Part shown: positions 44,559-63,114 of the stretch, piece after piece | Layout: every line of letters starts with the position of its first letter | Position numbering within the stretch: the first letter of the stretch is position 1 | Assembly (NCBI RefSeq): GCF_000027125.1 | Contig: NC_017626.1 | Origin: Escherichia coli 042 | Lineage (GTDB): Bacteria; Pseudomonadota; Gammaproteobacteria; Enterobacterales; Enterobacteriaceae | Reading direction: 5' to 3' (one strand) | Length of the DNA: 64,000 nt | The notes under the pieces: generated by a model | What the model saw: only the letters and a program-made list of their open reading frames with translations | Database searches by the model: none | What the model was told of the DNA's origin: nothing | Translations under genes and position numbers: made by a program

Positions 44559-44577
44559 AGATTCCTCACTGTTTGCT

Positions 44578-44622
44578 TTGCCTGATGCGACGCTCACACG
44601 TCTTATCAGGCCTACAAGACCG
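44578..44622. repeat. REP element
   Basis: gcctgatgcgacgctcacacgtcttatcaggcctaca between cysH and cysI. Confidence 0.7.
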
Positions 44623-44633
44623 GGCTGATGGTT

Positions 44634-46346: not shown

Positions 46347-48145
46347 TAGTAGACATCTCGCTGATAACGGCGCTCTACGCGCAGCTCACTTAAAAATTCA
46401 TCCGCCGCTTCGGTGTCCATGCCACCAAATTCGGCAATCACTTCCAGAAGTGCCTGCTCAACGTCTTTCGCCATGCGATTAGCGTCGCCGCAGACATAAA
46501 TGTGGGCACCGTCATTGATCCAGCGCCACAGCTCTGCGCCCTGTTCGCGCAGTTTGTCTTGTACGTAAATTTTTTCTTTTTGATCGCGCGACCAGGCAAG
46601 ATCGATCCGCGTCAGCACGCCCTCTTTGACGTAGCGCTGCCATTCCACCTGGTAGAGGAAATCTTCCGTAAAGTGCGGGTTGCCAAAGAACAGCCAGTTT
46701 TTCCCCGGCGCTTCGTCGGCGGCGCGTTGCTGCATAAAGGCGCGGAACGGCGCGATGCCGGTGCCTGGGCCAATCATAATCACTGGGGTTTCTGGGTTGG
46801 CTGGCAGGCGGAAGTTGTCGTTATGTTCGATAAATACGCGGACTTCGCCCTCTTCTTCCACGCGGTCCGCGAGGAAGCTGGAGGCACCACCGGCACGGGC
46901 GCGGCCTTCCACGTCGTAACGCACCACACCAACGGTGACGTGTACTTCGTTCTCGACTTCCGCCTGCGAGGAGGCGATGGAATACAGGCGCGGGGTCAGC
47001 GGGCGCAGCAGATTAATCAGCGCTTCGGCATTCAGTTGCGCCGGAGAGAAACGCACCATGTCGACAATCGGCGTGGTCGCGGCGTAATGCTGTAACTTCG
47101 CTTTATCGCCCACCAGCGGCAGCAGCGTTTCGCTGCGGGTAAGCGTGGCGTAGTTCTCAACAATGTTGGCGGTGTTGACGGTCAGTTCAAAGTGCCACTG
47201 GAGCGCTTCGCTCAGGGTCAGCGTTTTGCCGTCAACGGTGACAGTTTCATCGCCTTTCAGCCACAGCAGTTCGACAAGTTCTTTCACCAGTGCCGGATCG
47301 TTCTGATACCAGACGCCCAGCGCGTCACCCGGCTGGTAACGCAGGCCCGAGTCACCTAAGTCAATTTCGATATGGCGAACGTCTTTTTCAGAGTTACGCC
47401 CGGTAATTTTCTGGTTAACAGAGAGGCTCGCCACCAGCGGCGCGTCTTTGCTGTACGGGCTGGTGTGGATTTCATTTACCGCGCCAGTAGCGACGGATTG
47501 CGAAGGTGCCGCGACAGGCGCACGCGATTTAAGCGCATCAACCACGCGGGCGCGCCACTCGATGGCAGCAGCCTGGTATTCAACGTCGGCATCGACACGG
47601 TCGAGCAGGCGTTCACCGCCCAGTTCCGCCAGCTTGCTGTCAAAATCTTTCCCGGACTGGCAGAAAAATTCATAAGAGCTATCGCCGAGGCTAAACACGG
47701 CAAACGCGGTGTTTTCCAGCTTTGGCGCTTTTTTGGAGAACAGGAACTTATGCAGCGCGACGGCTTCTTCCGGCGGTTCCCCTTCCCCTTGCGTTGACGT
47801 CACCACGATGAGCAGTTTTTCGCTGGCGATTTGTTTGAATTTATAGTCGCCCGCGTTCACCAGCTTAACGTTCAGTTTTGCCGCTAATAAATCATCGCGT
47901 AATGCTTCAGCAACCCGGCGCGCATTGCCGGTTTGCGAAGCAGAGATAATAGTTATACCCGGCATTTCTGCGGCTGGCGCTGGCGTCGCTGCAAGCGCAG
48001 CAGGCTGCTGATTGAGCACGCCCCAGAAATAGCCAGAAACCCAGGCAAGCTGGGTGGGAGTTAAATCGGTCGTGGCCGCCTGAAGGCGTGCCAGTTGCTC
48101 CGGGTTCAACGGAAGCAACGCGGAAGGTGGGACCTGTGTCGTCAT
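46346..48145 (-). CDS. cysJ: sulfite reductase flavoprotein alpha subunit
   Basis: 599 aa; flavodoxin plus FNR-like domains. Confidence 0.96.
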
Positions 48146-48460
48146 GCGTCGTTATGTTCCAGTAAGCAAAGCTGTTTCTGCGCCCTGTCAGCGCCCATAA
48201 AACAGAAGAGAAGGTAAGGTTAACGGGGTGAACGGTGTGGATTAAAGACGGGATAGCGATAACTAATAACCAAATCGACTAACCTGTTTTAGCAATAGTC
48301 TTTAACAACAAAATAGATTAACCAACCCAATGAAAAACAAATGAATTTAGCCAATCATTAAGATAAATTAGCGATTTTGCGCAACAAAGTCGTTTTAGAT
48401 AATGCGAAAAAACAGCCTTTCCGGTACTCTACGGCGGTTTTATCGTCCTGTAGAGAAATT
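48146..48460. promoter_or_regulatory. divergent cysJIH / queD promoter region (expected CysB-activated cysJ promoter)
   Basis: 315-bp AT-rich non-coding gap upstream of cysJ; individual sites not resolved. Confidence 0.5.
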
Positions 48461-48826
48461 ATGATGTCCACCACGTTATTTAAAGATTTCACCTTCGAAG
48501 CCGCTCACCGCTTACCACACGTCCCGGAAGGACATAAATGTGGTCGCCTGCACGGGCATTCCTTTATGGTGCGACTGGAAATCACCGGGGAAGTCGATCC
48601 GCATACGGGCTGGATTATCGATTTCGCTGAACTGAAAGCGGCGTTTAAGCCAACCTACGAGCGTCTCGATCACCATTATCTCAATGATATTCCAGGTCTG
48701 GAAAACCCAACCAGCGAAGTTTTAGCAAAATGGATTTGGGATCAAGTTAAACCGGTTGTGCCGCTGTTAAGTGCGGTGATGGTAAAAGAAACCTGTACTG
48801 CAGGCTGTATCTATCGCGGCGAATGA
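48461..48826 (+). CDS. queD: 6-carboxy-5,6,7,8-tetrahydropterin synthase
   Basis: 121 aa from [18 protein letters not shown]; CxxHGH motif. Confidence 0.93.
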
Positions 48827-48903
48827 TAAGAGTGTGTCGGCGGTCAATTTCCCTTAAGTAACGCCATGTTAGGGTGTTGTGTTCTGGATATCTGGGGCAT
48901 GAC

Positions 48904-50175
48904 ATGGAAGACAACTGCGACATTATTATTATTGGTGCGGGTATAGCAGGCACCGCTTGCGCGTTACGCTGCACGCGGGCAGGTTTGTCCGTTCTGTTAC
49001 TGGAACGCGCTGAAATCCCCGGCAGCAAAAATCTTTCCGGCGGGCGTTTATACACCCATGCGCTCGCGGAACTCCTCCCGCAATTTCATCTGACCGCGCC
49101 TCTTGAACGACGCATCACTCACGAAAGCCTTTCTCTGCTAACGCCGGATGGCGCAACGACGTTTTCCAGCTTACAGCCCGGCCGTGAATCCTGGAGTGTA
49201 TTACGTGCACGGTTCGATCCGTGGCTGGTTGCCGAAGCCGAAAAAGAAGGTGTCGAATGCATCCCCGGTGCGACGGTGGATGCGCTGTATGAAGAAAACG
49301 GCAGGGTGTGTGGTGTCATTTGTGGTGACGATATTCTCCGCGCCCGTTATGTGGTGCTGGCAGAAGGTGCCAACAGCGTCCTGGCTGAACGTCACGGGTT
49401 AGTGACTCGTCCTGCTGGCGAAGCGATGGCGTTGGGGATCAAAGAAGTGCTGTCGCTGGAAACATCCGCTATTGAAGAACGTTTTCATCTGGAGAATAAC
49501 GAAGGCGCAGCGTTGCTGTTCAGCGGCGGGATCTGTGATGACTTACCCGGCGGCGCATTTCTTTATACTAATCAACAAACGCTCTCGTTAGGGATTGTTT
49601 GCCCGCTCTCTTCCCTTACGCAAAGTCGTGTTCCGGCAAGCGAGCTGCTGGCTCGCTTTAAAACGCATCCGGCAGTGCGCCCGCTTATCAAAAACACGGA
49701 ATCACTGGAGTATGGTGCGCATCTGGTGCCAGAAGGTGGCTTGCACAGTATGCCGGTGCAATACGCCGGTAACGGCTGGCTGCTGCTGGGCGATGCGTTG
49801 CGCAGTTGCGTCAATACCGGAATTTCCGTGCGCGGCATGGATATGGCGCTAACTGGCGCGCAGGCGGCGGCACAAACGCTGATAAGCGCCTGCCAGCACC
49901 GCGAGCCGCAAAATCTGTTTCCGCTTTATCATCACAACGTCGAGCGCAGCCTGCTATGGGATGTTCTACAACGTTATCAGCATGTTCCGGCGCTTTTGCA
50001 ACGCCCTGGATGGTACCGTGCGTGGCCTGCGTTAATGCAGGATATTTCCCGCGATTTATGGGATCAGGGTGATAAACCTGTTCCACCGCTGCGCCAGTTA
50101 TTCTGGCGTCATTTACGTCGTCACGGCCTGTGGCATCTGGCGGGCGATGTTGTCAGGAGTATTCGATGTCTGTAG
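48904..50175 (+). CDS. ygcN: FixC-like flavoprotein dehydrogenase (ETF:quinone oxidoreductase family)
   Basis: About 423 aa from MEDNCDIIIIGAGIAGTA (FAD-binding GxGxxG). Confidence 0.88.
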   Translation: MEDNCDIIIIGAGIAGTACALRCTRAGLSVLLLERAEIPGSKNLSGGRLYTHALAELLPQFHLTAPLERRITHESLSLLTPDGATTFSSLQPGRESWSVLRARFDPWLVAEAEKEGVECIPGATVDALYEENGRVCGVICGDDILRARYVVLAEGANSVLAERHGLVTRPAGEAMALGIKEVLSLETSAIEERFHLENNEGAALLFSGGICDDLPGGAFLYTNQQTLSLGIVCPLSSLTQSRVPASELLARFKTHPAVRPLIKNTESLEYGAHLVPEGGLHSMPVQYAGNGWLLLGDALRSCVNTGISVRGMDMALTGAQAAAQTLISACQHREPQNLFPLYHHNVERSLLWDVLQRYQHVPALLQRPGWYRAWPALMQDISRDLWDQGDKPVPPLRQLFWRHLRRHGLWHLAGDVVRSIRCL

Positions 50176-50426
50176 CCCGTAATCTCTGGCGCGCTGCTGA
50201 TGCGCCACATATTGTTCCGGCAGACTCCGTTGAGCGCCAGACGGCACAACAGTTGATTAACGCTTGTCCGGCTGGTCTTTTTTCGCTCACACCGGAGGGT
50301 GATTTGCACGTTGATTATCGTAATTGTCTGGAGTGCGGCACCTGCCGTTTGCTGTGCGATGAAAAAACGCTACAACAGTGGCACTATCCGCCTTCCGGAT
50401 TCGGCATCACCTACCGCTTTGGATAA
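50166..50426 (+). CDS. ygcO: FixX-like ferredoxin
   Basis: 86 aa from MSVARN; CxxCxxC...C motif. Confidence 0.85.
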   Translation: MSVARNLWRAADAPHIVPADSVERQTAQQLINACPAGLFSLTPEGDLHVDYRNCLECGTCRLLCDEKTLQQWHYPPSGFGITYRFG

Positions 50427-50442
50427 ATAATAAGGATAATTT

Positions 50443-51018
50443 ATGCCCCTCTTACACCTGCTCCGCCAGAATCCGGTGATTGCTGCCGTTAAAGATAATG
50501 CCAGCCTGCAACTGGCAATCGATTCTGAATGCCAGTTTATTTCCGTGTTGTACGGCAATATCTGCACCATCAGTAATATCGTTAAAAAGATTAAAAACGC
50601 CGGAAAATATGCCTTTATTCATGTTGATTTGCTGGAAGGCGCATCGAACAAAGAAGTGGTGATTCAGTTTCTGAAACTGGTGACCGAGGCGGACGGCATT
50701 ATCAGCACGAAAGCATCGATGCTAAAAGCGGCAAGAGCGGAAGGTTTTTTCTGTATTCATCGCCTGTTTATTGTTGATTCGATTTCGTTTCACAACATTG
50801 ATAAGCAAGTTGCGCAATCGAATCCGGATTGTATTGAGATCCTGCCAGGCTGTATGCCTAAAGTGCTAGGCTGGGTGACGGAGAAAATCCGCCAACCGCT
50901 GATTGCCGGCGGGCTGGTGTGCGATGAAGAAGATGCGCGTAATGCGATTAACGCGGGTGTTGTGGCGCTTTCCACCACGAATACCGGGGTCTGGACGTTA
51001 GCGAAAAAATTGCTTTGA
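50443..51018 (+). CDS. ygcP: GlpP-like glycerol-3-phosphate-responsive antiterminator family protein
   Basis: 191 aa ORF with GlpP-family similarity. Confidence 0.8.
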   Translation: MPLLHLLRQNPVIAAVKDNASLQLAIDSECQFISVLYGNICTISNIVKKIKNAGKYAFIHVDLLEGASNKEVVIQFLKLVTEADGIISTKASMLKAARAEGFFCIHRLFIVDSISFHNIDKQVAQSNPDCIEILPGCMPKVLGWVTEKIRQPLIAGGLVCDEEDARNAINAGVVALSTTNTGVWTLAKKLL

Positions 51019-51054
51019 CGGGATACTCGTAACGAGTTGAATTTGTGTGATTTG

Positions 51055-51160
51055 TAGGCTGCACGCCACATCCGACATTCAGCGCCTGATGCGACGCTTG
51101 ACGCGTCTTATCAGGCTTACAAGTCCCCAGCCCAGAACCGTAGGCAGGATCATCCGGCTG
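51055..51160. repeat. REP/BIME element
   Basis: gcctgatgcgacgcttgacgcgtcttatcaggcttaca plus flanking inverted copy between ygcP and ygcQ. Confidence 0.7.
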
Positions 51161-51164
51161 CACG

Positions 51165-52025
51165 TTATTGGCATTCTGCGTGAATGTTTGTCACCAGTGC
51201 CTCCAGCACCACTTTCCAGTCATCAACCACGCCAACATCTGCCTGTGAAAATACCGCTGCGCTGGCGTCATGATTAATCGCCACCACAAACTTGCTATTG
51301 CGTACGCCCGCCATTAACGCTGCTGCGCCGGAAGCGCCAACAACAATACACACCTCAGGTGCCAGCAGATGTCCGGAAATACCAATCACTTTTTCAGCAT
51401 CAACGCCACCGTTCATCACTCGCGCCCGACTGTAGCCCACTTCGGCTCCCAGCTTTTCTGCCAGCATAGCGATTTCCTGGTTATCTGCCTCTCCGCCCTG
51501 CCCCACCACCAGCACCCGTCTGGCCTCAGCTAATGGGTCACGGGTAACATTTTTCAGATCCTCTGTGCTAACCAGCCAGTCGGGAAGCGCGCCGGGGACA
51601 ATGTTCAGTTGCTGCATACCAGAGGGCAATGTGGCGTTTTTCACTGCTCCCGCCTGGCGGGCAAGGGAAAGGCATAGCGGGCGTTTTTCTGTTTGCAGCG
51701 TCGCCGTTAGCGCATTTCCCCAGTGGGATTTGCGCACGCTTACGGTTGAAATATCTAACGAAGTCACCTGGCAGATGCTTGCACCATGTAAACGCCAGGC
51801 CAGCCGGGTCGACAGTTCATCACCAAACGTTCCCGGCGGAAAGAGAACAACGTCCGCTGGCGTTCGCTGCCACTGTTCCACCAGCGCATCCAGCACCTGT
51901 TCCGCCACTACGGGCTGAGGTTCAATCTGCCAGTGTGCCAGGGTACAACCGCTGAAATCCTGTTCTGCCAGCCAGCTCGCTATTGCGGCATTCTCCTGAT
52001 TTATTGTCACAATTGCGATATTCAT
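51165..52025 (-). CDS. ygcQ: electron transfer flavoprotein alpha subunit (FixB-like)
   Basis: About 286 aa from MNIAIV; ETF-alpha C-terminal FAD domain. Confidence 0.88.
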   Translation of the reverse strand: MNIAIVTINQENAAIASWLAEQDFSGCTLAHWQIEPQPVVAEQVLDALVEQWQRTPADVVLFPPGTFGDELSTRLAWRLHGASICQVTSLDISTVSVRKSHWGNALTATLQTEKRPLCLSLARQAGAVKNATLPSGMQQLNIVPGALPDWLVSTEDLKNVTRDPLAEARRVLVVGQGGEADNQEIAMLAEKLGAEVGYSRARVMNGGVDAEKVIGISGHLLAPEVCIVVGASGAAALMAGVRNSKFVVAINHDASAAVFSQADVGVVDDWKVVLEALVTNIHAECQ

Positions 52026-52801
52026 GGCTGCATCCTTTGGCGTAAATAGTCCTGCCATAGCTTTTGCGCTTTTTCTGCTACCGTTTGCCCATCAATCAGC
52101 GTCGCTCCGCGTTGTTGCTCTGCTCTTGCCAGTTGCAGACACTGCATCGCTGGCGATTCGGCAGCAACAGTTTTACGGATAATTGCTGCTTTCCCCGCCG
52201 CCATTCGCTGACGCATTCCCGGTACTGGCAAGGCCACTTCACCGCACTGACGCACGGCAATCACCGCAGGCAAGCGAACCCGGCAACAGCGCAGCCCATG
52301 TTCAGTACGCTGTTCGAGGGTGATAAACGGCGCGTCGAGAGTGAAACGCTCCACCTGGGTGAAGCAGGGCCAGCCCAGCATTTCCGCCAGCAAAAATGGC
52401 GTTTGCCCATTCTGCCCTTCGCTGCTTTGGCAGCCGGTAATTATCAGATCCAGCGGATTCTGACGCTGCCATTCGGCAATATGGCGAGCGACAAATTCCG
52501 GCGCAAAGCGCAGATCTGCCGCCGTCTCCAGTAATACAGCTTCCTCAAACCCAAGAGCCATGAGATAGCGCAGCCATTGCAACGCCCGTTCATCCCCCAT
52601 GCTCAACGCGGTTAAAGACATCGACGTACCGTTTTTTCTCTGCGTCAACAGCAGCGCGGCGGCAGCCTGTTCATCAGCACCGAGTAAACTTCGCAGAAGC
52701 GAAACATCCGGCCCGCAGTTACCCTGAGCCGCCGCCTGCCACTCTTTTTCCGCCAGCATTCCGGCATCCGGTTCGGCTTTAAACGCTAACAGAATGTTCA
52801 T
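52022..52801 (-). CDS. ygcR: electron transfer flavoprotein beta subunit (FixA-like)
   Basis: About 259 aa from MNILLAFK. Confidence 0.88.
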   Translation of the reverse strand: MNILLAFKAEPDAGMLAEKEWQAAAQGNCGPDVSLLRSLLGADEQAAAALLLTQRKNGTSMSLTALSMGDERALQWLRYLMALGFEEAVLLETAADLRFAPEFVARHIAEWQRQNPLDLIITGCQSSEGQNGQTPFLLAEMLGWPCFTQVERFTLDAPFITLEQRTEHGLRCCRVRLPAVIAVRQCGEVALPVPGMRQRMAAGKAAIIRKTVAAESPAMQCLQLARAEQQRGATLIDGQTVAEKAQKLWQDYLRQRMQP

Positions 52802-54116
52802 TCGCACCTCCTACATTTCCCGCCGCCACCAGCGGGAGTGCTTTGGTTTCTGGTGCCCATAGCCAGGTCACAACAAACCCAATCAACAACACTGCCGCCA
52901 GAAGCAATAAGGTGGCCTGCATTCCCCACTGCGCCAGCACCCACGGCAGCAGGCCGGTACTTACCGCCGCGCCCAACCGGCTCATGGCGGTGGCAAAACC
53001 GACGCCCAGAGAGCGAATGTCGGTGGGGAAACTTTCCGCAGGCAAAATGCCCACCAGATTACTGACTGCCGAAATGGTGGTACTGAAGAGAACAAAAAGC
53101 AGCAGCGTTAATGAACTGCCGGAAGGCAAACAGGCCATCACAACCAGCGTTGCCGCCAGCAGCAAAAAACTGCCAAGTAAAAATTTGCGATGTGCCAGCA
53201 GGTGCGTCAGAACTAATCCCAGCAGCGCGCCCACAATTAACAACGCATTAAGCATCAGGCTGGCAGTCAGCGCATCTTCCAGTCCAATCGTCTGGGCGAT
53301 AGTTGGCAGCCAGGTATAAATCACAAACCACGGGATCACGAGGCAGACAAAGAAGACGCTGTTAAACACCGTGCGCCGCCAGTAACGTGAAGAGAACAAA
53401 GTTTTGATATGTTTATGGGTCGCCGTTGCCACTTCATCGCCCAATAAAACATGGGGACCCAAATAGCGATGTACGATAGCGTGAGCTTCTGCAAAACGCC
53501 CCTGGCGCAGTAGCCAGCGCGGCGATTCTGGTGTTCCCCAACGTAACAGGGTAATCAGCAAGGCGGGCAGCGCCGCCGATGCCAGCAGCCAGCGCCAGGC
53601 CTCCGGGCTTTCGCTAATAAAGTGATGTCCGGCAATACTTGCCAGCACATAGCCCACCGTCCACACCACGCTGAATGCGCCCAGCAAAATACCGCGATGG
53701 CGGCGCGGAGAAAATTCAGCCAGCAAGGTGTGGCCTACTGAATAATCGCCTCCCAGTCCAATGCCTATCAAAATGCGCAGGCCAATCAGGTGCTCTGGCG
53801 TGGTGGCAAAAAATTGTAAAAACGAGGCGAGCGTAATCAGCACAAAGCTGAAGGTGAAGATTTTTTGTCGCCCGATATGGTCGGAGATCCACCCCAAAAC
53901 CAGACTGCCAAGAAACAAACCCAGTAGCGCCGAGCCGCCGATCATTCCTGCCATAAACGGCGTCAGTTGCATGGCTGGCGTAAGCTGAATAATGGCGTAC
54001 CCAATGACGCCGAGGACATAACCATCGGTCAGGTGTGCGCCGAAAGTGAGCGCAGCAATTCGGCAGTGAAAACTGTTAAGCGGTAAATCATCCATTCGCA
54101 CCGGTGAAGTGTTCAT
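52779..54116 (-). CDS. ygcS: MFS transporter
   Basis: About 445 aa from MNTSPV; 12-TM MFS signature GRQK. Confidence 0.88.
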   Translation of the reverse strand: MNTSPVRMDDLPLNSFHCRIAALTFGAHLTDGYVLGVIGYAIIQLTPAMQLTPFMAGMIGGSALLGLFLGSLVLGWISDHIGRQKIFTFSFVLITLASFLQFFATTPEHLIGLRILIGIGLGGDYSVGHTLLAEFSPRRHRGILLGAFSVVWTVGYVLASIAGHHFISESPEAWRWLLASAALPALLITLLRWGTPESPRWLLRQGRFAEAHAIVHRYLGPHVLLGDEVATATHKHIKTLFSSRYWRRTVFNSVFFVCLVIPWFVIYTWLPTIAQTIGLEDALTASLMLNALLIVGALLGLVLTHLLAHRKFLLGSFLLLAATLVVMACLPSGSSLTLLLFVLFSTTISAVSNLVGILPAESFPTDIRSLGVGFATAMSRLGAAVSTGLLPWVLAQWGMQATLLLLAAVLLIGFVVTWLWAPETKALPLVAAGNVGGANEHSVSV

Positions 54117-54209
54117 CTTTACCCCTTCATTGTCCGGTAATAAGAACGGCTTCTCACCTGAGAAGCCGAAAAGGCAACGCCCCGTCACCACGGGACGCTG
54201 CCTGACACA

Positions 54210-55664
54210 TTATTTTTCAATCGGATAGATAGTACCCGTGTTCATAATACCGTTAGGATCGAACTGCTTTTTCAGTCCTTCCAGCAACGCCCATGCGCTG
54301 CCGTGTTCCAGTTTGCTCCAGTGAACGCGATGTTTACCGATACCGTGGTGGTGCACCATCGAACCGCCGAGGCGAATGGTTTCTTCGCAGATGATTTTGT
54401 TGAGCGGATTGTGGTACTTGTCGATTTCCTCTTCCGGTTTGCAGTCTACAACGTTGTAGTCGTACACGAAGTACATGTTGGTGCCGTTCTGGTAGCTGTG
54501 AGAGGAGTGACCGCCCAGCATGGTGATGTCGTCGGCGTGTGGGAACTCGGTACGAATACGGTTGATGACGCTTTCGTAGATTTCGTGGATGCAGCTCCAG
54601 CAGCCGGACACTTCGGTGGTAAAGCCCATGTTGCCAGTTTTGAGGATCTGCACACGTTCGGCAGCCACTTTATCCGGCCCCCAGTTCAGGTTGTTAAACC
54701 AGGTTTCGATCAGTTTGCTGTCTACGCGCTGGCACTGCGGGTAGCGAGCAACAATTTCCGCAATCCCTTCGCCCGTCGCCTTCGCAATGCGTGGGTTACC
54801 TTCAGCCATAAAGATCAGCACGCATTTTCCGTCGGCAAAATGGGTGAAGTGTTGGGTGCCATCTTCAGCGTCATACAAACGAGCGATCGACGGACGATAC
54901 CCTTCCACCATGATTTCACGCAGGATGTTGAAGCCGGTTTTCATGTCTTCCAGGATATAGCCGTAGAAGAGGTTGTTTTCCGGGGTGAACTTAAAGATTT
55001 TCACAGTTACTTCAGTGATATAGCACAATGCACCTTCGTTGCCGATGATGATGTGACGAATGTCCGGGCCAGCTGCGCGGCGTGGCACGTTTTTAATACG
55101 TGTGACGGTGCCATCAGCCAATACTGCTTCCAGACCAACGACCATATCTTCGATTGCGCCGTAGAGTGTGGAAAACTGCCCGATACTGCGGGTCGCCACC
55201 AGGCCGCCCATCTGCGCCAGCGGCTTTGACTGCGGAGAATGCCCCGTGGTGTAACCTTTTTCACGCAACGCGTTTTCCAGCACCTCCAGCGGAACGCCAC
55301 ATTGCGCCGTGGCCTGCATATTCTCAATATCAATATTAATGATTTGATTCATGGCGGAGCCGTCGAGCACCACCGAGTTTTCCACAACGGTTTCCAGCCC
55401 ACCTTCGGTGGCGGAAGCACCGGTACGTGGCACACCGTTAATTTTGTGCGCATTCATAAAATTCAGCACACGGGAGACTTGTTCTGTGGAACCGAGTTTT
55501 ACGACCGCTGCCGGAATCGGCAAAGTATAAATACCATGAATATCCGGAAATTTACGAAAACGGTCAATACTGTTTTTCTTTAATACTGTTTCATCGGTAA
55601 TTACGCGATCTGCACCAACAATTTCCTTTAGCTGGTCGACAATCGCTGCGCGAGATAAAGACAT
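54210..55664 (-). CDS. ygcU: FAD-linked oxidoreductase (FAD-binding PCMH-type domain)
   Basis: 484 aa ORF with FAD-linked oxidase similarity. Confidence 0.88.
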   Translation of the reverse strand: MSLSRAAIVDQLKEIVGADRVITDETVLKKNSIDRFRKFPDIHGIYTLPIPAAVVKLGSTEQVSRVLNFMNAHKINGVPRTGASATEGGLETVVENSVVLDGSAMNQIINIDIENMQATAQCGVPLEVLENALREKGYTTGHSPQSKPLAQMGGLVATRSIGQFSTLYGAIEDMVVGLEAVLADGTVTRIKNVPRRAAGPDIRHIIIGNEGALCYITEVTVKIFKFTPENNLFYGYILEDMKTGFNILREIMVEGYRPSIARLYDAEDGTQHFTHFADGKCVLIFMAEGNPRIAKATGEGIAEIVARYPQCQRVDSKLIETWFNNLNWGPDKVAAERVQILKTGNMGFTTEVSGCWSCIHEIYESVINRIRTEFPHADDITMLGGHSSHSYQNGTNMYFVYDYNVVDCKPEEEIDKYHNPLNKIICEETIRLGGSMVHHHGIGKHRVHWSKLEHGSAWALLEGLKKQFDPNGIMNTGTIYPIEK

Positions 55665-55733
55665 AGTAATTCCTTCCTGATAATAAAAATGGAATAATCA
55701 TTAATAAGAGAAAACAGAAACCACCGTTATGGA

Positions 55734-56519
55734 TTAGCGCACTAAATAACCGCCATCAACCACTAATAAATGTCCGTTGACATAATTCGATGCCGGACTT
55801 GCGAGGAATACGGCTGCGCCCATTAAATCCTGAGTATCGCCCCAACGGTTTGCCGGAATATGTTCAAGAACGCGCTGGTTAGTTTCTGGATTACTACGGG
55901 TCGCCAGAGTGATATCGGTAGCGTAATATCCCGGGGCAATACCATTCACCTGAATATTATATTGACCTAATTCATCGCAATAGGCTTTGGTGAATCCGGC
56001 AAGAGCATGTTTAGTGGCAGAATAAGCAGGTGACCATTGTCCACCTAAGTAAGAGAACAATGAACAGATATTAATGATTTTACCGCTTTTCTGCGGGATC
56101 ATAATTTTTGCAGCTTCATAGCTTAACTCGAATGCGGCGGTCAGGTTCACATCAATCATTGGATCCCAGTCGGCACGACCGAAGTCCAGCACCTTATTCA
56201 GCTTACAAATACCGGCATTGTTAACCAGAATATCGACGGTACCGAAACGTTCGCAACAGGCGGCGATTATCTTCTGCGGCGCGCCTTTTGCGGTGATATC
56301 CACCTGCATAAAATCAACTTCAACACCCTGTTTTTCAATCATTCCCTTTGTTTCGCCGTTATCTTTAACGAAGCTTGGAATAAAGATATTTGCACCAGCT
56401 TTGGCCAGCGCCATGGCAAATGCCTGGCCTAAACCGCTATTCCCGCCGGTAACAATTGCGGTTTTACCTTTCAGGGAGAAAAAATCCATTGAGAACGCAT
56501 TGAGAGATTCGATTGACAT
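55734..56519 (-). CDS. ygcW: short-chain dehydrogenase/reductase (SDR)
   Basis: About 261 aa from MSIESLN; TGGNSGLG cofactor motif, YxxxK catalytic pair. Confidence 0.88.
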   Translation of the reverse strand: MSIESLNAFSMDFFSLKGKTAIVTGGNSGLGQAFAMALAKAGANIFIPSFVKDNGETKGMIEKQGVEVDFMQVDITAKGAPQKIIAACCERFGTVDILVNNAGICKLNKVLDFGRADWDPMIDVNLTAAFELSYEAAKIMIPQKSGKIINICSLFSYLGGQWSPAYSATKHALAGFTKAYCDELGQYNIQVNGIAPGYYATDITLATRSNPETNQRVLEHIPANRWGDTQDLMGAAVFLASPASNYVNGHLLVVDGGYLVR

Positions 56520-56837
56520 AGTTAGCTCCAATTTCCGTAAGGCAAAAAAAAAGAAAGGTAACTTCCCCCGCGAGAGGGAAGTTACCTTTCTCATTATCTC
56601 TGGTAACTGGAGATAATTTTTATCATAAGGGCATAATCGCTAATGTGATCGTAATCACAGTGTTATATTCGAATTGTCAAATAATTTTAAAAAGCAGAAG
56701 CGTGATTACTCTCACACAACACCACTGCTTTCCATGTTATTTCTTATTGCAATTACTAGAGACCTGAGAAAAGTAATCCACCTGAAAGGGCGGCTTACTT
56801 TTCTCTTTTTTTTGTCTATTACAAATGGGAATACGAT

Positions 56838-58115
56838 ATGCAACACAACTCATATCGCCGTTGGATAACCCTCGCGATAATTAGTTTTAGCGGCGGCGTT
56901 AGTTTCGACCTGGCTTATTTACGTTATATTTATCAAATTCCCATGGCGAAATTTATGGGATTCAGCAATACCGAGATAGGTTTAATAATGAGTACCTTTG
57001 GTATTGCGGCTATTATTCTTTATGCCCCCAGCGGCGTTATTGCCGATAAATTTTCACACCGCAAAATGATTACTTCCGCGATGATCATTACCGGATTACT
57101 GGGTCTGTTAATGGCAACATATCCACCGCTGTGGGTAATGCTCTGTATTCAGGTCGCCTTTGCGATAACGACGATTTTAATGCTGTGGTCGGTGTCGATT
57201 AAAGCCGCCTCGTTGCTGGGCGATCATAGCGAGCAAGGGAAAATTATGGGCTGGATGGAAGGGCTGCGCGGCGTCGGTGTAATGTCGCTGGCGGTGTTTA
57301 CCATGTGGGTCTTTTCTCGCTTTGCACCGGATGACAGCGCCAGCCTGAAAACGGTCATTATTATCTATAGTGTGGTTTACATTCTGCTGGGCATTTTGTG
57401 TTGGTTTTTTGTTAGCGATAACAACAACCTGCGCAATACCAATAACGAAGAAAAACAGTCATTCCAGCTTAGCGACATCCTGGCTGTTTTGCGCATCAGC
57501 ACCACCTGGTATTGCAGCATGGTGATTTTTGGTGTCTTCACCATCTACGCCATTCTGAGTTACTCCACCAACTATCTGACCGAAATGTACGGCATGTCGC
57601 TGGTGGCGGCGAGCTACATGGGGATTGTGATCAACAAAATCTTCCGCGCACTGTGCGGCCCACTTGGTGGCATTATCACCACCTACAGCAAAGTGAAATC
57701 CCCTACCCGCGTGATCCAAATCCTTTCCGTACTCGGCTTGCTGGCGTTAACTGCCCTGCTCGTCACGAACTCTAACCCGCAATCGGTCGCGATGGGGATT
57801 GGCCTGATTTTACTGCTGGGATTCACCTGTTACGCCTCACGCGGGCTGTACTGGGCCTGCCCTGGCGAAGCGAGAACACCGTCTTACATTATGGGCACCA
57901 CGGTAGGTATTTGTTCGGTGATTGGATTCCTGCCGGATGTCTTCGTTTACCCGATTATCGGCTACTGGCAAGACACCCTGCCCGCTGCAGAAGCCTACCG
58001 CAATATGTGGCTGATGGGCATGGCGGCGCTTGCCATGGTGATCGTCTTTACCTTTTTGCTGTTCCAAAAAATTCGTACTGCTGATAGCGCCCCTGCTATG
58101 GCTAGCAGCAAGTAA
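56838..58115 (+). CDS. yqcE: MFS transporter
   Basis: 425 aa polytopic membrane ORF divergent from ygcW. Confidence 0.88.
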   Translation: MQHNSYRRWITLAIISFSGGVSFDLAYLRYIYQIPMAKFMGFSNTEIGLIMSTFGIAAIILYAPSGVIADKFSHRKMITSAMIITGLLGLLMATYPPLWVMLCIQVAFAITTILMLWSVSIKAASLLGDHSEQGKIMGWMEGLRGVGVMSLAVFTMWVFSRFAPDDSASLKTVIIIYSVVYILLGILCWFFVSDNNNLRNTNNEEKQSFQLSDILAVLRISTTWYCSMVIFGVFTIYAILSYSTNYLTEMYGMSLVAASYMGIVINKIFRALCGPLGGIITTYSKVKSPTRVIQILSVLGLLALTALLVTNSNPQSVAMGIGLILLLGFTCYASRGLYWACPGEARTPSYIMGTTVGICSVIGFLPDVFVYPIIGYWQDTLPAAEAYRNMWLMGMAALAMVIVFTFLLFQKIRTADSAPAMASSK

Positions 58116-58141
58116 GTCCAGAAAATTACAGGAGAAAAATC

Positions 58142-59620
58142 ATGTCGAAAAAATACATCATAGGGATTGATGGCGGAAGTCAGAGCACAAAAGTGGTGAT
58201 GTATGATCTGGAAGGTAATGTGGTTTGCGAAGGCAAAGACTTATTGCAGCCGATGCACACGCCAGATGCCGATACCGCAGAACATCCTGACGACGATTTA
58301 TGGGCATCATTATGTTTTGCCGGTCACGATTTGATGAGTCAGTTTGCCGGGAATAAAGAAGATATTGTCGGTATTGGTCTGGGCTCCATCCGTTGCTGCC
58401 GTGCGTTATTGAAAGCCGATGGCACGCCAGCTGCGCCGTTGATTAGCTGGCAGGATGCACGCGTTACACGCCCTTACGAACATACGAATCCTGACGTGGC
58501 ATATGTCACCTCTTTTTCAGGTTATCTGACGCATCGCTTAACCGGCGAGTTTAAAGACAATATCGCCAACTATTTTGGTCAGTGGCCGGTGGATTATAAG
58601 ACCTGGGCATGGAGTGAAGATGCCGCAGTCATGGAGAAGTTTAATATCCCCCGTCATATGCTGTTTGATGTGCAAATGCCTGGCACCGTCCTCGGACATA
58701 TCACACCACAAGCCGCACTGGCGACACATTTCCCGGCAGGACTGCCGGTTGTTTGTACCACCAGTGATAAACCGGTAGAAGCTCTGGGGGCCGGATTACT
58801 GGATAATGAAACTGCGGTAATTTCTCTTGGCACTTACATCGCATTGATGATGAACGGCAAAGCACTGCCGAAAGATCCGGTGGCGTACTGGCCAATTATG
58901 TCTTCTATTCCGCAAACATTGCTGTATGAAGGTTACGGTATCCGCAAAGGCATGTGGACAGTGAGCTGGCTGCGCGACATGTTAGGCGAGTCGTTAATTC
59001 AGGATGCCAAAGCACAGGATCTTTCACCGGAAGATTTACTCAACAAGAAAGCGTCTTGTGTGCCGCCTGGCTGTAATGGTCTGATGACGGTGCTGGACTG
59101 GCTGACCAATCCGTGGGAACCGTACAAACGCGGGATTATGATCGGCTTTGATTCCAGCATGGATTACGCATGGATATATCGTTCGATACTGGAAAGCGTG
59201 GCGCTGACGCTGAAGAACAATTACGACAATATGTGTAATGAAATGAATCACTTTGCAAAGCATGTGATCATTACTGGCGGTGGTTCGAACAGCGATCTGT
59301 TTATGCAGATTTTTGCCGACGTGTTCAACCTTCCGGCACGACGTAACGCCATTAATGGTTGTGCAAGTCTGGGGGCAGCGATTAATACGGCGGTAGGTCT
59401 GGGGCTATACCCGGATTACGCAACGGCTGTCGACAAAATGGTTCGCATGAAAGATATCTTTATGCCTGTTGAGAGCAACGCCAAACGCTACGACGCGATG
59501 AATAAAGGCATTTTCAAAGACCTAACCAAACACACTGATGTGATCCTGAAAAAATCGTATGAAGTGATGCATGGTGAGCTGGGGAATGAAGATTCGATCC
59601 AGAGCTGGTCGAATGCGTAA
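58142..59620 (+). CDS. ygcE: FGGY-family carbohydrate kinase
   Basis: 492 aa; N-terminal IIGIDGGSQSTK sugar-kinase motif. Confidence 0.9.
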   Translation: MSKKYIIGIDGGSQSTKVVMYDLEGNVVCEGKDLLQPMHTPDADTAEHPDDDLWASLCFAGHDLMSQFAGNKEDIVGIGLGSIRCCRALLKADGTPAAPLISWQDARVTRPYEHTNPDVAYVTSFSGYLTHRLTGEFKDNIANYFGQWPVDYKTWAWSEDAAVMEKFNIPRHMLFDVQMPGTVLGHITPQAALATHFPAGLPVVCTTSDKPVEALGAGLLDNETAVISLGTYIALMMNGKALPKDPVAYWPIMSSIPQTLLYEGYGIRKGMWTVSWLRDMLGESLIQDAKAQDLSPEDLLNKKASCVPPGCNGLMTVLDWLTNPWEPYKRGIMIGFDSSMDYAWIYRSILESVALTLKNNYDNMCNEMNHFAKHVIITGGGSNSDLFMQIFADVFNLPARRNAINGCASLGAAINTAVGLGLYPDYATAVDKMVRMKDIFMPVESNAKRYDAMNKGIFKDLTKHTDVILKKSYEVMHGELGNEDSIQSWSNA

Positions 59621-59666
59621 GTGAGGAAGACCGGGCGGGAAACTGCCCGGCCTGAACATACCTGAA

Positions 59667-59804
59667 TGGTTATCCCCGCTGACGCGGGGAACATAAGTTC
59701 GACAACTTAAAAAATGATAACAAGTCCGGTTTATCCCCGCTGATGCAGGGAACATAATAAAAACTTTAACTAGTTCGGTTTATCCCTGTTTTTACAAGGA
59801 ATAT
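59667..59804 (-). CRISPR. degenerate CRISPR remnant (3 decayed I-E repeats)
   Basis: tggttatccccgctgacgcggggaacat, cggtttatccccgctgatgcagggaacat, cggtttatccctgtttttacaaggaatat, separated by 32-nt and 20-nt spacers. Confidence 0.7.
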
Positions 59805-60257
59805 TAACTACACTCGATGTCTTTAGAATAAAAGACAATACGAATCGCACTTTATCAATTTTCACTTAAAGTATGAACTGGATATCTTTATTCATAAGAA
59901 CTATTCATCAACAGCGTATAGAGGCGATTATGTAAAATCACTCATTAGCCTCAAAACAAAGACAAATTTCCAGATTTATTACTTAATCAATGAATAATAA
60001 GCTTAAAAAATACACTGTTATTCTAAAGAAAAAATTAACAGGCATTAATTAATATTAAAAAAATAATATATTAAAATTTCTTAACGATTTAAGAATCATA
60101 CAAATAACACTTTGATTAAATTTAATTTTTTGTATCGATAATTGTGAACTTCTCTGGCATGGAGAACTATTTTGAACATGAGGTGTTACGTGGATATGTT
60201 GCTTATTACAAGTACTGCTAATATAAAAACTTGAGAAAGAGATAACGGGTTATATGG

Positions 60258-60408
60258 TGGTTTATCCCCGCTGGCGCGGGGAACTCTTGGCATAGGCGCT
60301 ATAGCGGCGCTCTGTGTCCGGTTTATCCCCGCTGACGTGGGGAACTCAAAGACAAATTTCTTTGTTCCTATGGCCAGACCGGTTTATCCCCGCTGGCGCG
60401 GGGAACTC
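60258..60408 (-). CRISPR. second type I-E CRISPR array: 3 repeats, 2 spacers of 32 nt
   Basis: Repeats at 60258, 60319, 60380 ((t/c)ggtttatccccgctg(g/a)cg(c/t)ggggaactc); 61-nt period. Confidence 0.9.
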
Positions 60409-60540
60409 TCTAAACATAACCTATTATTAATTAATGATTTTTTAAGCCAGTCACAATCTACCAACTTTACAGTATCACACAAACAACACATCCATTATGT
60501 TAAAGAGCATTTAATCCATTGATTAAAAAGATAAATATTT
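60409..60540 (-). promoter_or_regulatory. leader of the second CRISPR array
   Basis: AT-rich; motif acaatctaccaact at 60453..60466, 45 nt from the last repeat, matching the first leader (46 nt). Confidence 0.75.
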
Positions 60541-60746
60541 GAAATAACTCTATTCAAACTAAAATCTACCAAATTTCACCGCAATAATTTTCACTCCAAC
60601 GAAAAATTAACGCCATAAAATTTGTAGAGAATGATAATGATTAGTTCAGGATGGGCAAAATGGAGGTTTTTCAGAGGCGACAAAGAATATAAATGAGTAG
60701 AAGTCTTTACAGGTTCCACCCATTTATAACGCTTATAAATGTTTAA

Positions 60747-61418
60747 TCAGGCAATATTTAAATATTTATGCGTTTGCATCGACAAACGCCAGTTGCGCGC
60801 AATGCACGTATCGATACATAAACGAGTAGCATCATCCTTTTGGCTAATCGGCTGCAGTGCAATGACTCGCGGTTTATCATCGGTCAGTGTTGCCAGTAGT
60901 TCATCCAGTGCTTCAATATCACGTACGCGTCCCACTGGATGCTTGATTTCGTTGGCTCGCTCCAGTGCCTGTGACAACACTTCATAGCCGCCGCGCATGT
61001 TCAGCTTTGGCGATACGGTAACCCAGGTATTCGGTGTGCAGCGTACCTCATGAGTACCACTGGTTTCGATCTGGCAGCTAAAACCGTTCTTTTCGAGCAG
61101 GTCAGTCAGTGGCAGCAAATCATGAATGCAAGGCTCACCACCCGTAATCACCACATGCCGCGCGGTGTATCCCTGGCGACCAATGACAGCCAGCAAGTCT
61201 TCACTGCTCGCCGCCCCCCACTTATCACTCTCTTTGGTCTTCGCCAGAATGCTGAAAAGGGAGACTTCCCGATCCTCAAGCTTTTCCCAGGTGTGTTTGG
61301 TGTCGCACCAGGCACAGCCAACCGGGCATCCCTGTAAACGAATAAAAATGGCGGGGACGCCGGTAAAGTAACCCTCACCTTGCAGGGTCTGGAACATCTC
61401 GTTAATCGGGTACTGCAT
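60747..61418 (-). CDS. queE: 7-carboxy-7-deazaguanine synthase (radical SAM)
   Basis: 223 aa; CPVGCAWCDT radical-SAM cysteine motif. Confidence 0.93.
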   Translation of the reverse strand: MQYPINEMFQTLQGEGYFTGVPAIFIRLQGCPVGCAWCDTKHTWEKLEDREVSLFSILAKTKESDKWGAASSEDLLAVIGRQGYTARHVVITGGEPCIHDLLPLTDLLEKNGFSCQIETSGTHEVRCTPNTWVTVSPKLNMRGGYEVLSQALERANEIKHPVGRVRDIEALDELLATLTDDKPRVIALQPISQKDDATRLCIDTCIARNWRLSMQTHKYLNIA

Positions 61419-61590
61419 AGCATTCTCTGTGAAGTGGATAATTGTTAATTATTGCAGATCCTGCCACAACAATCATGTCTTATTAACATTCTGTTACAGG
61501 CAGGTTTAAGGCAAAAAGTGGATGAGATCATAAAGAATAAAATGAAGCGGCGTATTATGTTTTAAGGAATTAATTAAAAGGGACATAGAC

Positions 61591-62193
61591 ATGCTCAGGA
61601 TATTCATCGTAATTATATTTATTGCCAATTTATCAGGCTGTGGATATAACGATATTCAAACCTATGATGAGCAGGTTAACGCCTCCTGGTCTGAGGTATT
61701 GAATCAATATCAACGTCGCGCCGATCTTATTCCTAATCTTGTCGCCAGTATTAAAGGTTATTCCAGCCATGAACAAGAGGTACTGGAAGCCGTAACATTG
61801 GCACGTAGCCAGGCTAATCGCGCCAGTAGCGATCTTCAGCAAGCTCCGGGAGATGCGCAAAAATTACAAGCCTGGCAACAAGCCCAGGCGCAGGTGTCTC
61901 GCACTCTCGGTCAGTTAACGATAATTAGTGAACGTTACCCTGATTTAAAAGCTCAGGAACTCTATCAAAATTTAATGGTACAGCTCGAAGGAAGTGAAAA
62001 TAGAATTGCCGTTGCGCGAGGAAGATATATTAAAGCCATTGAACAATATAATGTCACTATCCGCAAATTCCCCGCTGTATTAACCGCAAAGGTCATGGAT
62101 TACACACCGAAGAAAAATTATTTGCCGGATGACGTCGCAGCTGTGAGTAAAGCACCAATAATAGATTTTAGCCAGAATGCTAATGCGCATTAA
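61591..62193 (+). CDS. lemA: LemA-family lipoprotein
   Basis: 200 aa; lipobox LSGC; LemA-family similarity. Confidence 0.8.
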   Translation: MLRIFIVIIFIANLSGCGYNDIQTYDEQVNASWSEVLNQYQRRADLIPNLVASIKGYSSHEQEVLEAVTLARSQANRASSDLQQAPGDAQKLQAWQQAQAQVSRTLGQLTIISERYPDLKAQELYQNLMVQLEGSENRIAVARGRYIKAIEQYNVTIRKFPAVLTAKVMDYTPKKNYLPDDVAAVSKAPIIDFSQNANAH

Positions 62194-62206
62194 GCGGGGA
62201 AGTTAT

Positions 62207-63100: not shown

Positions 63101-63114
63101 CAAAAGGAATTGAT

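Follow-up and report, generated by a model that had tools for sequence, protein, structure and literature searches.

The ygcN-ygcE locus

We analysed a stretch of 64,000 nucleotides from Escherichia coli 042 (contig NC_017626.1; hereafter the window) and, within it, the ten adjacent genes ygcN, ygcO, ygcP, ygcQ, ygcR, ygcS, ygcU, ygcW, yqcE and ygcE (positions 48904-59620). A first-pass annotation made from the sequence had described these genes as one coherent module, and this holds: they are co-conserved, are under purifying selection, and share a cis-regulatory RNA and a CRP site. The substrate suggested there was a polyol or a sugar acid; the evidence below points instead towards a quaternary ammonium compound with a glycerol-type moiety. 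All ten open reading frames (ORFs) are intact and lie at the positions first given for them, as does the intergenic region between ygcW and yqcE:

48904-50175, plus strand: ygcN, FixC-like FAD-dependent oxidoreductase of the electron transfer flavoprotein (ETF):quinone oxidoreductase type, intact, 423 aa
50166-50426, plus strand: ygcO, FixX-like ferredoxin, 86 aa
50443-51018, plus strand: ygcP, GlpP-family protein (PF04309), putative ligand-dependent RNA antiterminator
51165-52025, minus strand: ygcQ, divergent ETF alpha subunit (EtfA/FixB-like), 286 aa
52022-52801, minus strand: ygcR, divergent ETF beta subunit (EtfB/FixA-like)
52779-54188, minus strand: ygcS, major facilitator superfamily (MFS) transporter (sugar-porter, aromatic-acid and organic-cation-like)
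54210-55664, minus strand: ygcU, flavoenzyme resembling alkyl-dihydroxyacetone phosphate synthase (AGPS), with FAD_binding_4 and FAD-oxidase_C domains, 484 aa
55734-56519, minus strand: ygcW, short-chain dehydrogenase/reductase (SDR) similar to KduD and gluconate-5-dehydrogenase
56520-56837: divergent ygcW/yqcE intergenic region
56838-58115, plus strand: yqcE, MFS transporter of the anion:cation symporter type
58142-59620, plus strand: ygcE, FGGY kinase of a distinct subfamily

The family labels of the first pass (FixABCX-like, MFS, SDR, FGGY kinase and GlpP-like) are borne out by NCBIfam, and by Pfam in the case of YgcP, and none of the ten proteins reaches an NCBIfam equivalog cut-off (release 20, June 2026). 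YgcN scored 377.9 bits with PRK10015 and 363.9 bits with FixC, each under the cut-off; YgcO scored 76.9 bits with FixX (cut-off 166), and YgcW 349.7 bits with PRK06935 (cut-off 369). The EtfA-type models matched YgcQ with E-values of 1e-21 at best, all far under the cut-off; for YgcR the best EtfB-type match was 1e-11, and PDB entry 1efp_B matched at 5.5e-12. Of the two transporters, YgcS matched TIGR00895 (9e-54), TIGR00879 (7e-42) and TIGR00898, a "cation transport protein" (2e-39), and YqcE matched TIGR00893 (7.8e-19).

That the cluster has no assigned substrate also stands: the RefSeq/PGAP names are generic (2026), NCBIfam gives no function, and no paper in the searchable literature to 2025 assigns one. 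The same search returned no function for ygcW, yqcE or ygcE, and no paper linking FGGY, BCCT, ETF or AGPS-like genes. A mention of "YgcO" in a review of the nitrogen phosphotransferase system (PTS-Ntr) was rejected as relevant, being a misprint for YcgO. Overexpression of ygcS leads to more nicotinamide mononucleotide being made from nicotinamide (PMC8601175), an effect that does not define the natural substrate of YgcS.

For ygcS, the K-12-type start codon probably lies at 54119 (ATG). Between the ygcU stop codon and this ATG is a GC-rich hairpin of 9 bp (CGGCUUCUC-AGGU-GAGAAGCCG, 54147-54168, minus strand), which falls within the longer ygcS ORF annotated in strain A10 and hints that the 469-aa version of the gene is too long. 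The hairpin could be an intra-operon terminator or an RNA stabiliser.

A conserved core and optional electron-transfer genes

Among the loci compared (67 in the synteny sample, taken from one-genome-per-species collections), YgcW, YgcU and YgcE are the only enzymes that travel together in all phyla sampled, usually with YgcP. Outside Enterobacterales, YgcW is 62-79%, YgcU 54-73% and YgcE 43-57% identical to the E. coli protein; the core is found in Sporomusa, Syntrophomonadaceae, a Firmicutes metagenome-assembled genome (MAG; HGW-Firmicutes-7, L069), halophilic Bacillaceae, Enterococcus canis, Desulfobacterales, Spirochaeta and Photobacterium, and it spans Proteobacteria, Firmicutes, Desulfobacterota and Spirochaetota. 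The 62-79% identity of YgcW is seen in Firmicutes and Photobacterium, and YgcU, the most conserved protein of the cluster, is 71-73% identical in Sporomusa, Alkalihalobacillus and Photobacterium. YqcE accompanies the core in Enterobacterales and in Photobacterium (58% identity).

Selection on the genes differs between the core and the rest. The ratio of nonsynonymous to synonymous substitution rates (dN/dS), measured against Citrobacter, Klebsiella, Raoultella, Pluralibacter and Cedecea, is 0.007-0.07 for ygcU (0.007-0.07), ygcW, ygcP (0.014-0.056), ygcE and yqcE (0.04-0.07), and 0.06-0.31 for ygcN (0.06-0.23), ygcO, ygcQ (0.14-0.31) and ygcR (0.09-0.22), so that the ETF/FixCX genes evolve 5-10 times faster than the core enzymes. 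These values indicate that all of the genes are functional, with the electron-transfer genes much less constrained; together with the intact ORFs, they led us to reject a pseudogenised cluster.

The ETF/FixCX genes had been counted as part of the module in the first pass. All four are present here, but across phyla they are optional and stand outside the universal core. Where ETF genes occur they come after ygcU; they are present in anaerobes and in facultative anaerobes (Enterobacteriaceae and Photobacterium) and absent from some facultative Enterobacterales (Erwinia, Pantoea and Serratia proteamaculans), from the clusters of aerobic Bacillaceae and from Enterococcus canis. This distribution would fit a true dehydrogenase step, for which aerobes use O2 or a housekeeping ETF instead; alternatively, it would fit a role in keeping the flavin of YgcU oxidised without O2.

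Leader attenuators and a CRP site between the divergent operons

Two leader attenuators and a CRP site lie in the ygcW/yqcE intergenic region:

56544..56613, minus strand: leader attenuator A (ygcW leader), with a 7-bp antiterminator AGUUACC/GGUAACU, the conserved loop AGAGAUAAUGAGAAA and an overlapping terminator
56592..56551, minus strand: terminator of attenuator A, a 19-bp stem followed by U9 (terminator scan), between a promoter-like site and the ygcW start codon
56644..56659: palindromic CRP site TGTGATTACGATCACA, between the two divergent promoters and flanked by both attenuators (exact match, 0 expected by chance)
56746..56813, plus strand: leader attenuator B (yqcE-ygcE leader), paralogous to A, with antiterminator AUUACU/AGUAAU, terminator and U8

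The ygcW leaders of 24 genera hold a conserved block, CAGUUACY-AGAGA-nn-AUGAGAAARGURAC, that runs into the terminator. Since the 5' RUUACY pairs with GURAY, which is also in the 5' arm of the terminator, the two structures are mutually exclusive. Both helices are supported by covariation: in one alignment (A1) the terminator is 91.8% paired, with both partners changed in eight pairs, the antiterminator shows 98.2% pairing, and one position goes from C:G:C to U:A:U in both helices together. In the full alignment (A4) the terminator is 98.2% paired, with 9 of its 14 pairs changed on both sides, and the antiterminator is 92.5% paired, its pair types being GC 69 / AU 35 and UA 74 / CG 26. Attenuator A alone folds as the terminator (-35.2 kcal/mol, z -6.3), and attenuator B does likewise (-22.3 kcal/mol, z -4.1), whereas the antiterminator hairpins are weak alone (-9.4 and -1.4 kcal/mol); the default state is therefore OFF, and a stabilising factor is needed for read-through.

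A covariance model (R1) built from 61 leaders matches the 64-kb window exactly twice, with E-values of ~1e-13, at attenuator A (77.1 bits) and attenuator B (76.9 bits). It finds 118 copies over 71 loci, including loci outside its training set: before the SDR gene and before a BCCT transporter gene in Sporomusa; before ygcU and before a BCCT gene in the Firmicutes MAG; before an operon for an OpuC-like ABC transporter in Salsuginibacillus and Alkalicoccus; and before a glycerol dehydrogenase gene and the kinase gene in Enterococcus canis. The motif is present in every locus with ygcP, and no match was found in seven full-length loci that lack ygcP or in three truncated loci. In Limnobaculum eriocheiris (L038, 3088-3170) the R1 matches overlap on both strands and the ygcW leader is without the usual 5' RUUACY arm; the divergent leaders there may share one bidirectional terminator. 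No Rfam 15 family reaches its gathering score over 44000-64000 (the best sub-threshold scores are at most 25 bits, with cut-offs of 44-170), and we consider the leader motif a candidate new cis-regulatory RNA family, outside Rfam, of Enterobacterales, Vibrionaceae and anaerobic Firmicutes.

The protein most plausibly acting on these leaders is YgcP, which matches Pfam PF04309 (G3P_antiterm) over the full model with an E-value of 1.6e-62 and PDB entry 3kts with 1.2e-27. Leader antitermination is established for this family in the GlpP protein of Bacillus subtilis. The first-pass annotation had recognised the GlpP-like gene and missed its likely targets, the two attenuators. We regard the attenuators as very probably real regulatory elements, and YgcP, by analogy with GlpP, as their probable effector; given that the cluster encodes a kinase of its own, the ligand is likely to be something other than plain glycerol-3-phosphate.

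Published data fit this picture. The CRP site is bound in vivo in chromatin immunoprecipitation of CRP in enterotoxigenic E. coli (PMC4287617), it is bound in vitro with a Kd of 1.7 nM in CRP Footprint-seq (PMC12871828), and yqcE-ygcE is on a list of Crp-activated operons (PMC8085971). The ygcW/yqcE spacer also carries a peak for sigma-70 RNA polymerase, together with H-NS, in a SELEX (systematic evolution of ligands by exponential enrichment) study (PMC3946193). Among previously undetected RNAs of MG1655, a short RNA "upstream of yqcE on the same strand" was probed on northern blots (PMC4681348); our reading is that it is the attenuated leader transcript.

Some of these data would also fit a view in which the genes are cryptic or decaying and the leader hairpins are ordinary bidirectional terminators, or independent small RNA (sRNA) genes, with no link to YgcP. 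Expression under laboratory conditions is very low, H-NS has been seen to bind the intergenic region, the short RNA ahead of yqcE was first listed as a candidate sRNA, and about 7% of complete E. coli genomes hold less than 80% of the region (some retain only the last 457 bp of ygcE). We consider this view very improbable, given the ten intact ORFs with dN/dS of 0.007-0.31 and the synteny kept over Enterobacteriaceae genera. The hairpins, moreover, lie downstream of promoters and upstream of start codons, and the 5' element covaries with the 5' arm of the terminator with which it pairs; the motif precedes different genes in distant phyla (for an SDR, the kinase, a BCCT transporter, an ABC transporter and an MttB-like protein), and ygcP is present in all but one of the motif cases with enough flanking DNA.

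YgcU has the catalytic residues of alkyl-DHAP synthase

YgcU consists of a PCMH-type FAD domain (PF01565) and an FAD-oxidase_C cap (PF02913), and it had been labelled a FAD-linked oxidase. A flavin-dependent step remains plausible, but the protein is not a generic oxidase of this kind, since it has the catalytic residues of AGPS instead of Glu-His. A profile of the YgcU family (15 homologues) matched AGPS in the PDB with an E-value of 1.8e-62, and the best 2-hydroxy-acid oxidase, glycolate oxidase, with 3.3e-38. When the catalytic positions of AGPS were anchored by the PDB chains of its R419H and Y578F mutants, R262, Y398 and H438-H440 of YgcU aligned with R419, Y578 and H615-617 of AGPS, and all are invariant in the 15 homologues. 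In a Foldseek search with the AlphaFold model of YgcU (mean confidence, pLDDT, 76), the top 30 matches were all AGPS (E 1.8e-27). On these sequence comparisons, substitution or cleavage at C1 of an intermediate resembling dihydroxyacetone phosphate (DHAP) appears at least as likely as a simple oxidation.

The position of the ETF genes directly after ygcU, in every cluster that has them, could also be read as a sign of a complex like LctBCD, in which YgcU and YgcQR would carry out the anaerobic oxidation of a D-2-hydroxy acid, FixCX would hand the electrons on to quinone, and the kinase and SDR would act upstream. YgcU matches GlcD, LctD and D-lactate dehydrogenase at E-values of 1e-22 to 1e-38, and LctC is the top PDB match of YgcQ. 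Canonical EtfA matches YgcQ about as well (both ~1e-21), YgcQ and YgcR being equally distant from canonical and bifurcating ETFs. YgcQ, however, aligns only from residue 139 of LctC, so it is without the N-terminal ferredoxin domain. The Glu-His (EHG) motif of enzymes of the GlcD and D-lactate dehydrogenase type is metal-binding. Where a second GlcD-like oxidase beside the ETF genes (in Sporomusa) has SEHG, YgcU has VHHHG, an invariant HHH at the Ser-Glu-His position, in addition to the Tyr and Arg of AGPS. Such a second, truly GlcD-like oxidase follows the ETF genes in Sporomusa and Photobacterium, as well as in two further loci, where the ETF may have it as its true partner. We therefore regard an LctBCD-like role for YgcU as improbable.

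Kinase, dehydrogenase and neighbouring genes suggest a possible substrate class

The closest solved structures to YgcE are LsrK (6.7e-54) and the glycerol kinases (~1e-39). YgcE keeps the equivalents of R83, W103 and the catalytic D245 of GlpK (R84, W103 and D209) and has a Cys instead of GlpK E84. Enterococcus canis has, in place of the SDR, a glycerol dehydrogenase of the GldA family (444 bits, with an NCBIfam cut-off of 336), a non-orthologous displacement which suggests that this step oxidises the secondary alcohol of a 1,2-diol akin to glycerol. In the loci compared, the core is conserved with no aldolase, isomerase, epimerase or dehydratase, and we would accordingly expect the three steps to end in a central metabolite that enters glycolysis directly.

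In comparing genome contexts, we found that a coherent core does recur across phyla; it is flanked there by betaine-type transporters and MttB-like enzymes, and its ETF genes are optional. The usual transporter next to the core outside Enterobacterales is of the betaine type: a BCCT transporter in Sporomusa, Alkalihalobacillus, Photobacterium and the Firmicutes MAG, and an OpuC/OsmF-like ABC system in Syntrophomonadaceae, Salsuginibacillus, Alkalicoccus and soda-lake contigs. Scanning metagenomes for the RNA motif in its Firmicutes form recovered 12 loci, in which the motif precedes ygcW (three loci), an OpuC-like operon (three) or a gene for a methyltransferase of the MttB superfamily (five). 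In one of the contigs (L075) the MttB-like gene follows ygcW, ygcE, ygcU and the ETF genes in the same orientation, apparently in one operon. Glycine betaine, proline betaine, carnitine and gamma-butyrobetaine are established substrates for demethylation by non-pyrrolysine MttB proteins. In L077 (4939-8705), and also in L073, L081 and L083, all metagenome contigs of anaerobes, the motif lies between a gene of the opine (octopine/nopaline) dehydrogenase family and an MttB-like gene; a PanB-like hydroxymethyltransferase gene and an OpuC-type transporter come next, and the contigs carry no ygcW-ygcU-ygcE core.

Other lineages add enzymes of their own. Erwinia, Pantoea and Serratia have an aldehyde dehydrogenase resembling betaine aldehyde dehydrogenase, an aldo-keto reductase, a formaldehyde-activating enzyme (Fae, which passes its cut-off) and a GcvA-like regulator; Alkalihalobacillus has an aspartase-like lyase, an aldehyde dehydrogenase and a zinc alcohol dehydrogenase.

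The first-pass annotation had read the cluster as taking up, phosphorylating and oxidising a neutral polyol or a sugar acid: uptake by the MFS transporters, phosphorylation by YgcE, oxidation by YgcW and YgcU, and electrons passed by the ETF and FixCX to quinone, analogous to erythritol catabolism (the kinase EryA, then a flavin-linked polyol-phosphate dehydrogenase). The kinase and flavin steps remain plausible. The FGGY kinase, the KduD-like SDR, and the sugar-porter and galactonate-type MFS proteins are all in keeping with this model, as are the ETF and FixCX genes of the same Enterobacteriaceae cluster, kept under purifying selection, and activation by CRP, which is typical for operons of carbon sources. 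In other phyla, however, the core is tied to betaine-type transporters and quaternary-amine methyltransferases, not to sugar transporters; YgcU has the AGPS set, is without the Ser-Glu-His of its GlcD-like neighbour and has no relationship to enzymes of the GlpD/EryB type; the core is accompanied by no isomerase, epimerase, aldolase or dehydratase; and many complete clusters do without the ETF. We find a neutral polyol or sugar acid unlikely on balance. The simplest account of the neighbouring genes is that the substrate bears a quaternary ammonium group, which seems to us an even proposition; that it has a glycerol-type moiety processed to a DHAP derivative is a tentative suggestion that falls somewhat short of that. 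The AGPS link suggests, as the best fit, the deacylated forms of the betaine lipids diacylglyceryl-trimethylhomoserine (DGTS), diacylglyceryl-hydroxymethyl-trimethyl-beta-alanine (DGTA) and diacylglyceryl-carboxyhydroxymethylcholine (DGCC), which are glyceryl ethers of betaines; glycerophosphocholine and trimethylammonio-propanediol are alternatives.

Proposed regulation and pathway

We put at about one in two the chance that CRP and antitermination by YgcP control the catabolism of a 1-substituted glycerol bearing a quaternary ammonium group. Gene content, conservation, the RNA structures and the AGPS-type residues come from the analysis itself, and CRP binding from published work; in the scheme that follows, whose regulatory part is the best supported, we infer the binding of YgcP to RNA, its ligand, the substrate class, the order of the steps and the role of the ETF. 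The genes would form a normally silent regulon of two operons (ygcWUSRQ and yqcE-ygcE) with a separate helper operon, ygcNOP. The single CRP site would activate both divergent promoters, and each transcript would stop by default at its leader terminator. YgcP loaded with a phosphorylated intermediate of the pathway would bind the RUUACY...GAG...GAGAAARGURAY element and stabilise the weak antiterminator hairpin, leading to read-through.

The substrate would be a glycerol-like 1,2-diol with a quaternary ammonium group, such as a betaine glyceryl ether. It would be taken up by YqcE or YgcS (by BCCT- or OpuC-type systems in other phyla), YgcW would oxidise its secondary alcohol, and YgcE would phosphorylate its primary alcohol, giving a 1-substituted dihydroxyacetone phosphate. 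In the fourth step YgcU, by AGPS-type flavin chemistry at C1, would free the substituent and leave DHAP or a close derivative. YgcQR (ETF) and YgcNO (FixCX-like) would connect the flavin of YgcU to the quinone pool, either removing electrons or keeping the flavin oxidised without O2.

Several observations weigh against this scheme. Its weakest point is the role of the ETF: the ETF/FixCX genes are under purifying selection, yet it is not obvious why a redox-neutral substitution of the AGPS type would require them. In the fold search, D-lactate dehydrogenases come close behind AGPS (1e-24 and 1e-27), and the confidence of the YgcU model is moderate; because this search separates the two weakly, the case for AGPS is based on profile E-values and catalytic residues rather than on the ranking of folds. 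The link between YgcP and the leader RNA draws on their co-occurrence in the genomes compared and on the analogy with GlpP, and Serratia microhaemolytica (L035) has both leader elements and the full enzyme set with no ygcP within its 21-kb locus, where the regulator may be encoded elsewhere in the genome. The occurrence of the motif before MttB-like genes on contigs without the three-enzyme core suggests that it may serve wider (quaternary-amine) regulons. As the E. coli cluster uses MFS transporters, not BCCT or OpuC, the case for a quaternary amine is built on other taxa. Finally, the main text of a proteomic study of Citrobacter amalonaticus on choline and carnitine does not mention the cluster proteins, and this silence, as far as the main text goes, argues weakly against choline or carnitine as inducers.

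A more specific version of the proposed scheme is a long shot, in our estimate. In it, YgcW, YgcE and YgcU would run the ether-lipid pathway in reverse and would be the first route in bacteria for water-soluble betaine-lipid head groups. After oxidation at C2 and phosphorylation of deacylated DGTS, DGTA or DGCC, YgcU would cleave the otherwise inert glyceryl-ether bond to give DHAP and a betaine alcohol. The released alcohol would pass to lineage-specific enzymes, namely MttB-type demethylases in anaerobes, and alcohol dehydrogenase, aldehyde dehydrogenase and the aspartase-like lyase in Alkalihalobacillus. Control of the whole regulon would lie with leader RNAs of a new class that GlpP-family proteins recognise in both Proteobacteria and Firmicutes.

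Ten adjacent genes of E. coli K-12 have been without a function on paper since the genome was sequenced, and the analysis turns an "unknown sugar" into a testable hypothesis. The two attenuators, YgcP and CRP provide a genetic handle by which the genes might be switched on without guessing the inducer, and the AGPS-type site, the displacement by glycerol dehydrogenase, the betaine transporters and the MttB enzymes narrow the candidates to quaternary-ammonium derivatives of glycerol. A new RNA family would extend GlpP-type antitermination past the glycerol genes of Bacillus. If the substrate is indeed a betaine-lipid head group or a choline-type compound, the cluster would bear on trimethylamine metabolism in the gut and on the cycling of carbon and nitrogen in the sea.

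Genomic setting and conservation of the locus

In RefSeq the gene order is queD, then ygcN, ygcO and ygcP (rightward), ygcQ, ygcR, ygcS, ygcU and ygcW (leftward), yqcE and ygcE (rightward), the CRISPR repeats and queE. At least 80% of 48904-59620 is held by 5060 of 5426 complete E. coli genomes. The best match to the region is strain A10, from a wood-wren (99.7%; K-12 MG1655 has 96.2%), and identity is at least 99% in just 9 of 5431 E. coli records (most have 95-97%), so the lineage of the window is uncommon and close to A10. In some E. coli genomes the cluster carries IS3 or IS1397 insertions.

Placement between queD and queE, with cysJ beyond, is shared by Escherichia, Citrobacter, Klebsiella spallanzanii, Raoultella, Pluralibacter, Yokenella, Cedecea and Buttiauxella; in Serratia the cluster is placed elsewhere, adjoining metH and lysC. 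Along the cluster, GC content stays at 48-57% in most windows of 1 kb and drops only in those that take in the ygcW/yqcE spacer and the 3' end of ygcE; in this respect the coding windows are like the cysJI flank. The accessory origin first supposed for the cluster is contradicted by the synteny over many genera, by its presence in most E. coli genomes and by this GC content; on the synteny and the unremarkable GC we rejected a recent horizontal island, and the cluster is old and well conserved. Contigs labelled as a Planctomycetota MAG (L006) and Chryseobacterium sp. 18061 (L029) have ygcU genes that are 100% and 88% identical, with enterobacterial neighbours, and are most likely contamination or mis-binning, not gene transfer.

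The cluster had also been described as bracketed by CRISPR arrays and repetitive extragenic palindromic (REP) elements. CRISPR repeats do lie directly downstream of ygcE, where a direct repeat search found short arrays that Tandem Repeats Finder missed, but the upstream array is 14 kb away:

34160-34553: upstream CRISPR array, 14 kb from the cluster, past the cas genes, cysHIJ and queD
59667-59805: degenerate CRISPR repeats of type I-E, three repeats, 62-79% identical to the reference repeat
60259-60409: CRISPR repeats of type I-E, three repeats, between ygcE and queE

Nor do the REP elements enclose the cluster. One REP-like palindrome (GCCTGATGCGACGC...) is situated where ygcP and ygcQ converge (51060-51125), its match at 51084 being inside the cluster, and a second copy of the REP-like 14-mer, at 44580, is just downstream of an ORF at 44634.

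Comparison with known systems

The electron-transfer proteins have the same domain set as the FixABCX/EtfABCX systems (in E. coli, fixABCX beside caiTABCDE, and ydiQRST), namely EtfB, EtfA, a FixC-type flavoprotein and a FixX ferredoxin, and, as in the fix/cai case, the ETF genes adjoin genes that plausibly handle a quaternary ammonium compound. They differ in that all four proteins are far under the Fix equivalog cut-offs, that the genes are split over two operons (ygcRQ and ygcNO), and that they are missing from many otherwise complete clusters and evolve faster than the core. From the Ldh-EtfAB (LctBCD) system the cluster differs in both partners: YgcU is without an EHG-type motif, and YgcQ without the N-terminal ferredoxin domain.

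The non-pyrrolysine MttB-superfamily systems for demethylating quaternary amines in anaerobic Firmicutes (MtgB, MtpB, MtcB and MtyB) have a parallel in the MttB-like genes that lie in the core operon or directly behind the motif, next to OpuC-type transporters; in contrast, the E. coli cluster has no MttB homologue, and the MttB-like proteins of the contigs fall under the trimethylamine-methyltransferase cut-off.

The proposed regulation is closest to that by GlpP of B. subtilis, which acts on the glpD, glpFK and glpTQ leaders. In both cases a small PF04309 protein is encoded with catabolic genes, the regulated operons are preceded by an intrinsic leader terminator, catabolite control is layered on top, and the expected inducer is a phosphorylated intermediate of the glycerol type. 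The host here is Gram-negative and the target operons are others, and the RUUACY-GAG-GAGAAARGURAY motif that overlaps the terminator has no Rfam family.

AGPS (EC 2.5.1.26) is the best match for YgcU in both sequence and fold, with the catalytic Arg, Tyr and His loop all kept, and its companions in the ether-lipid route are mirrored by the SDR (compare alkyl-DHAP reductase) and by a kinase for a glycerol derivative. YgcU is without the N-terminal extension of about 170 residues, however (the alignment begins at AGPS residue 178; 484 aa as against 658), and its residues 283-345, between two conserved blocks, cannot be aligned with AGPS 438-523. The AGPS segment between these blocks contributes to the lipid tunnel. 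The context of YgcU is also different, being catabolic, CRP-controlled and tied to transporters of hydrophilic solutes and to ETF. Judged from its sequence, YgcU may share the mode of action of AGPS, yet we would not classify it as one.

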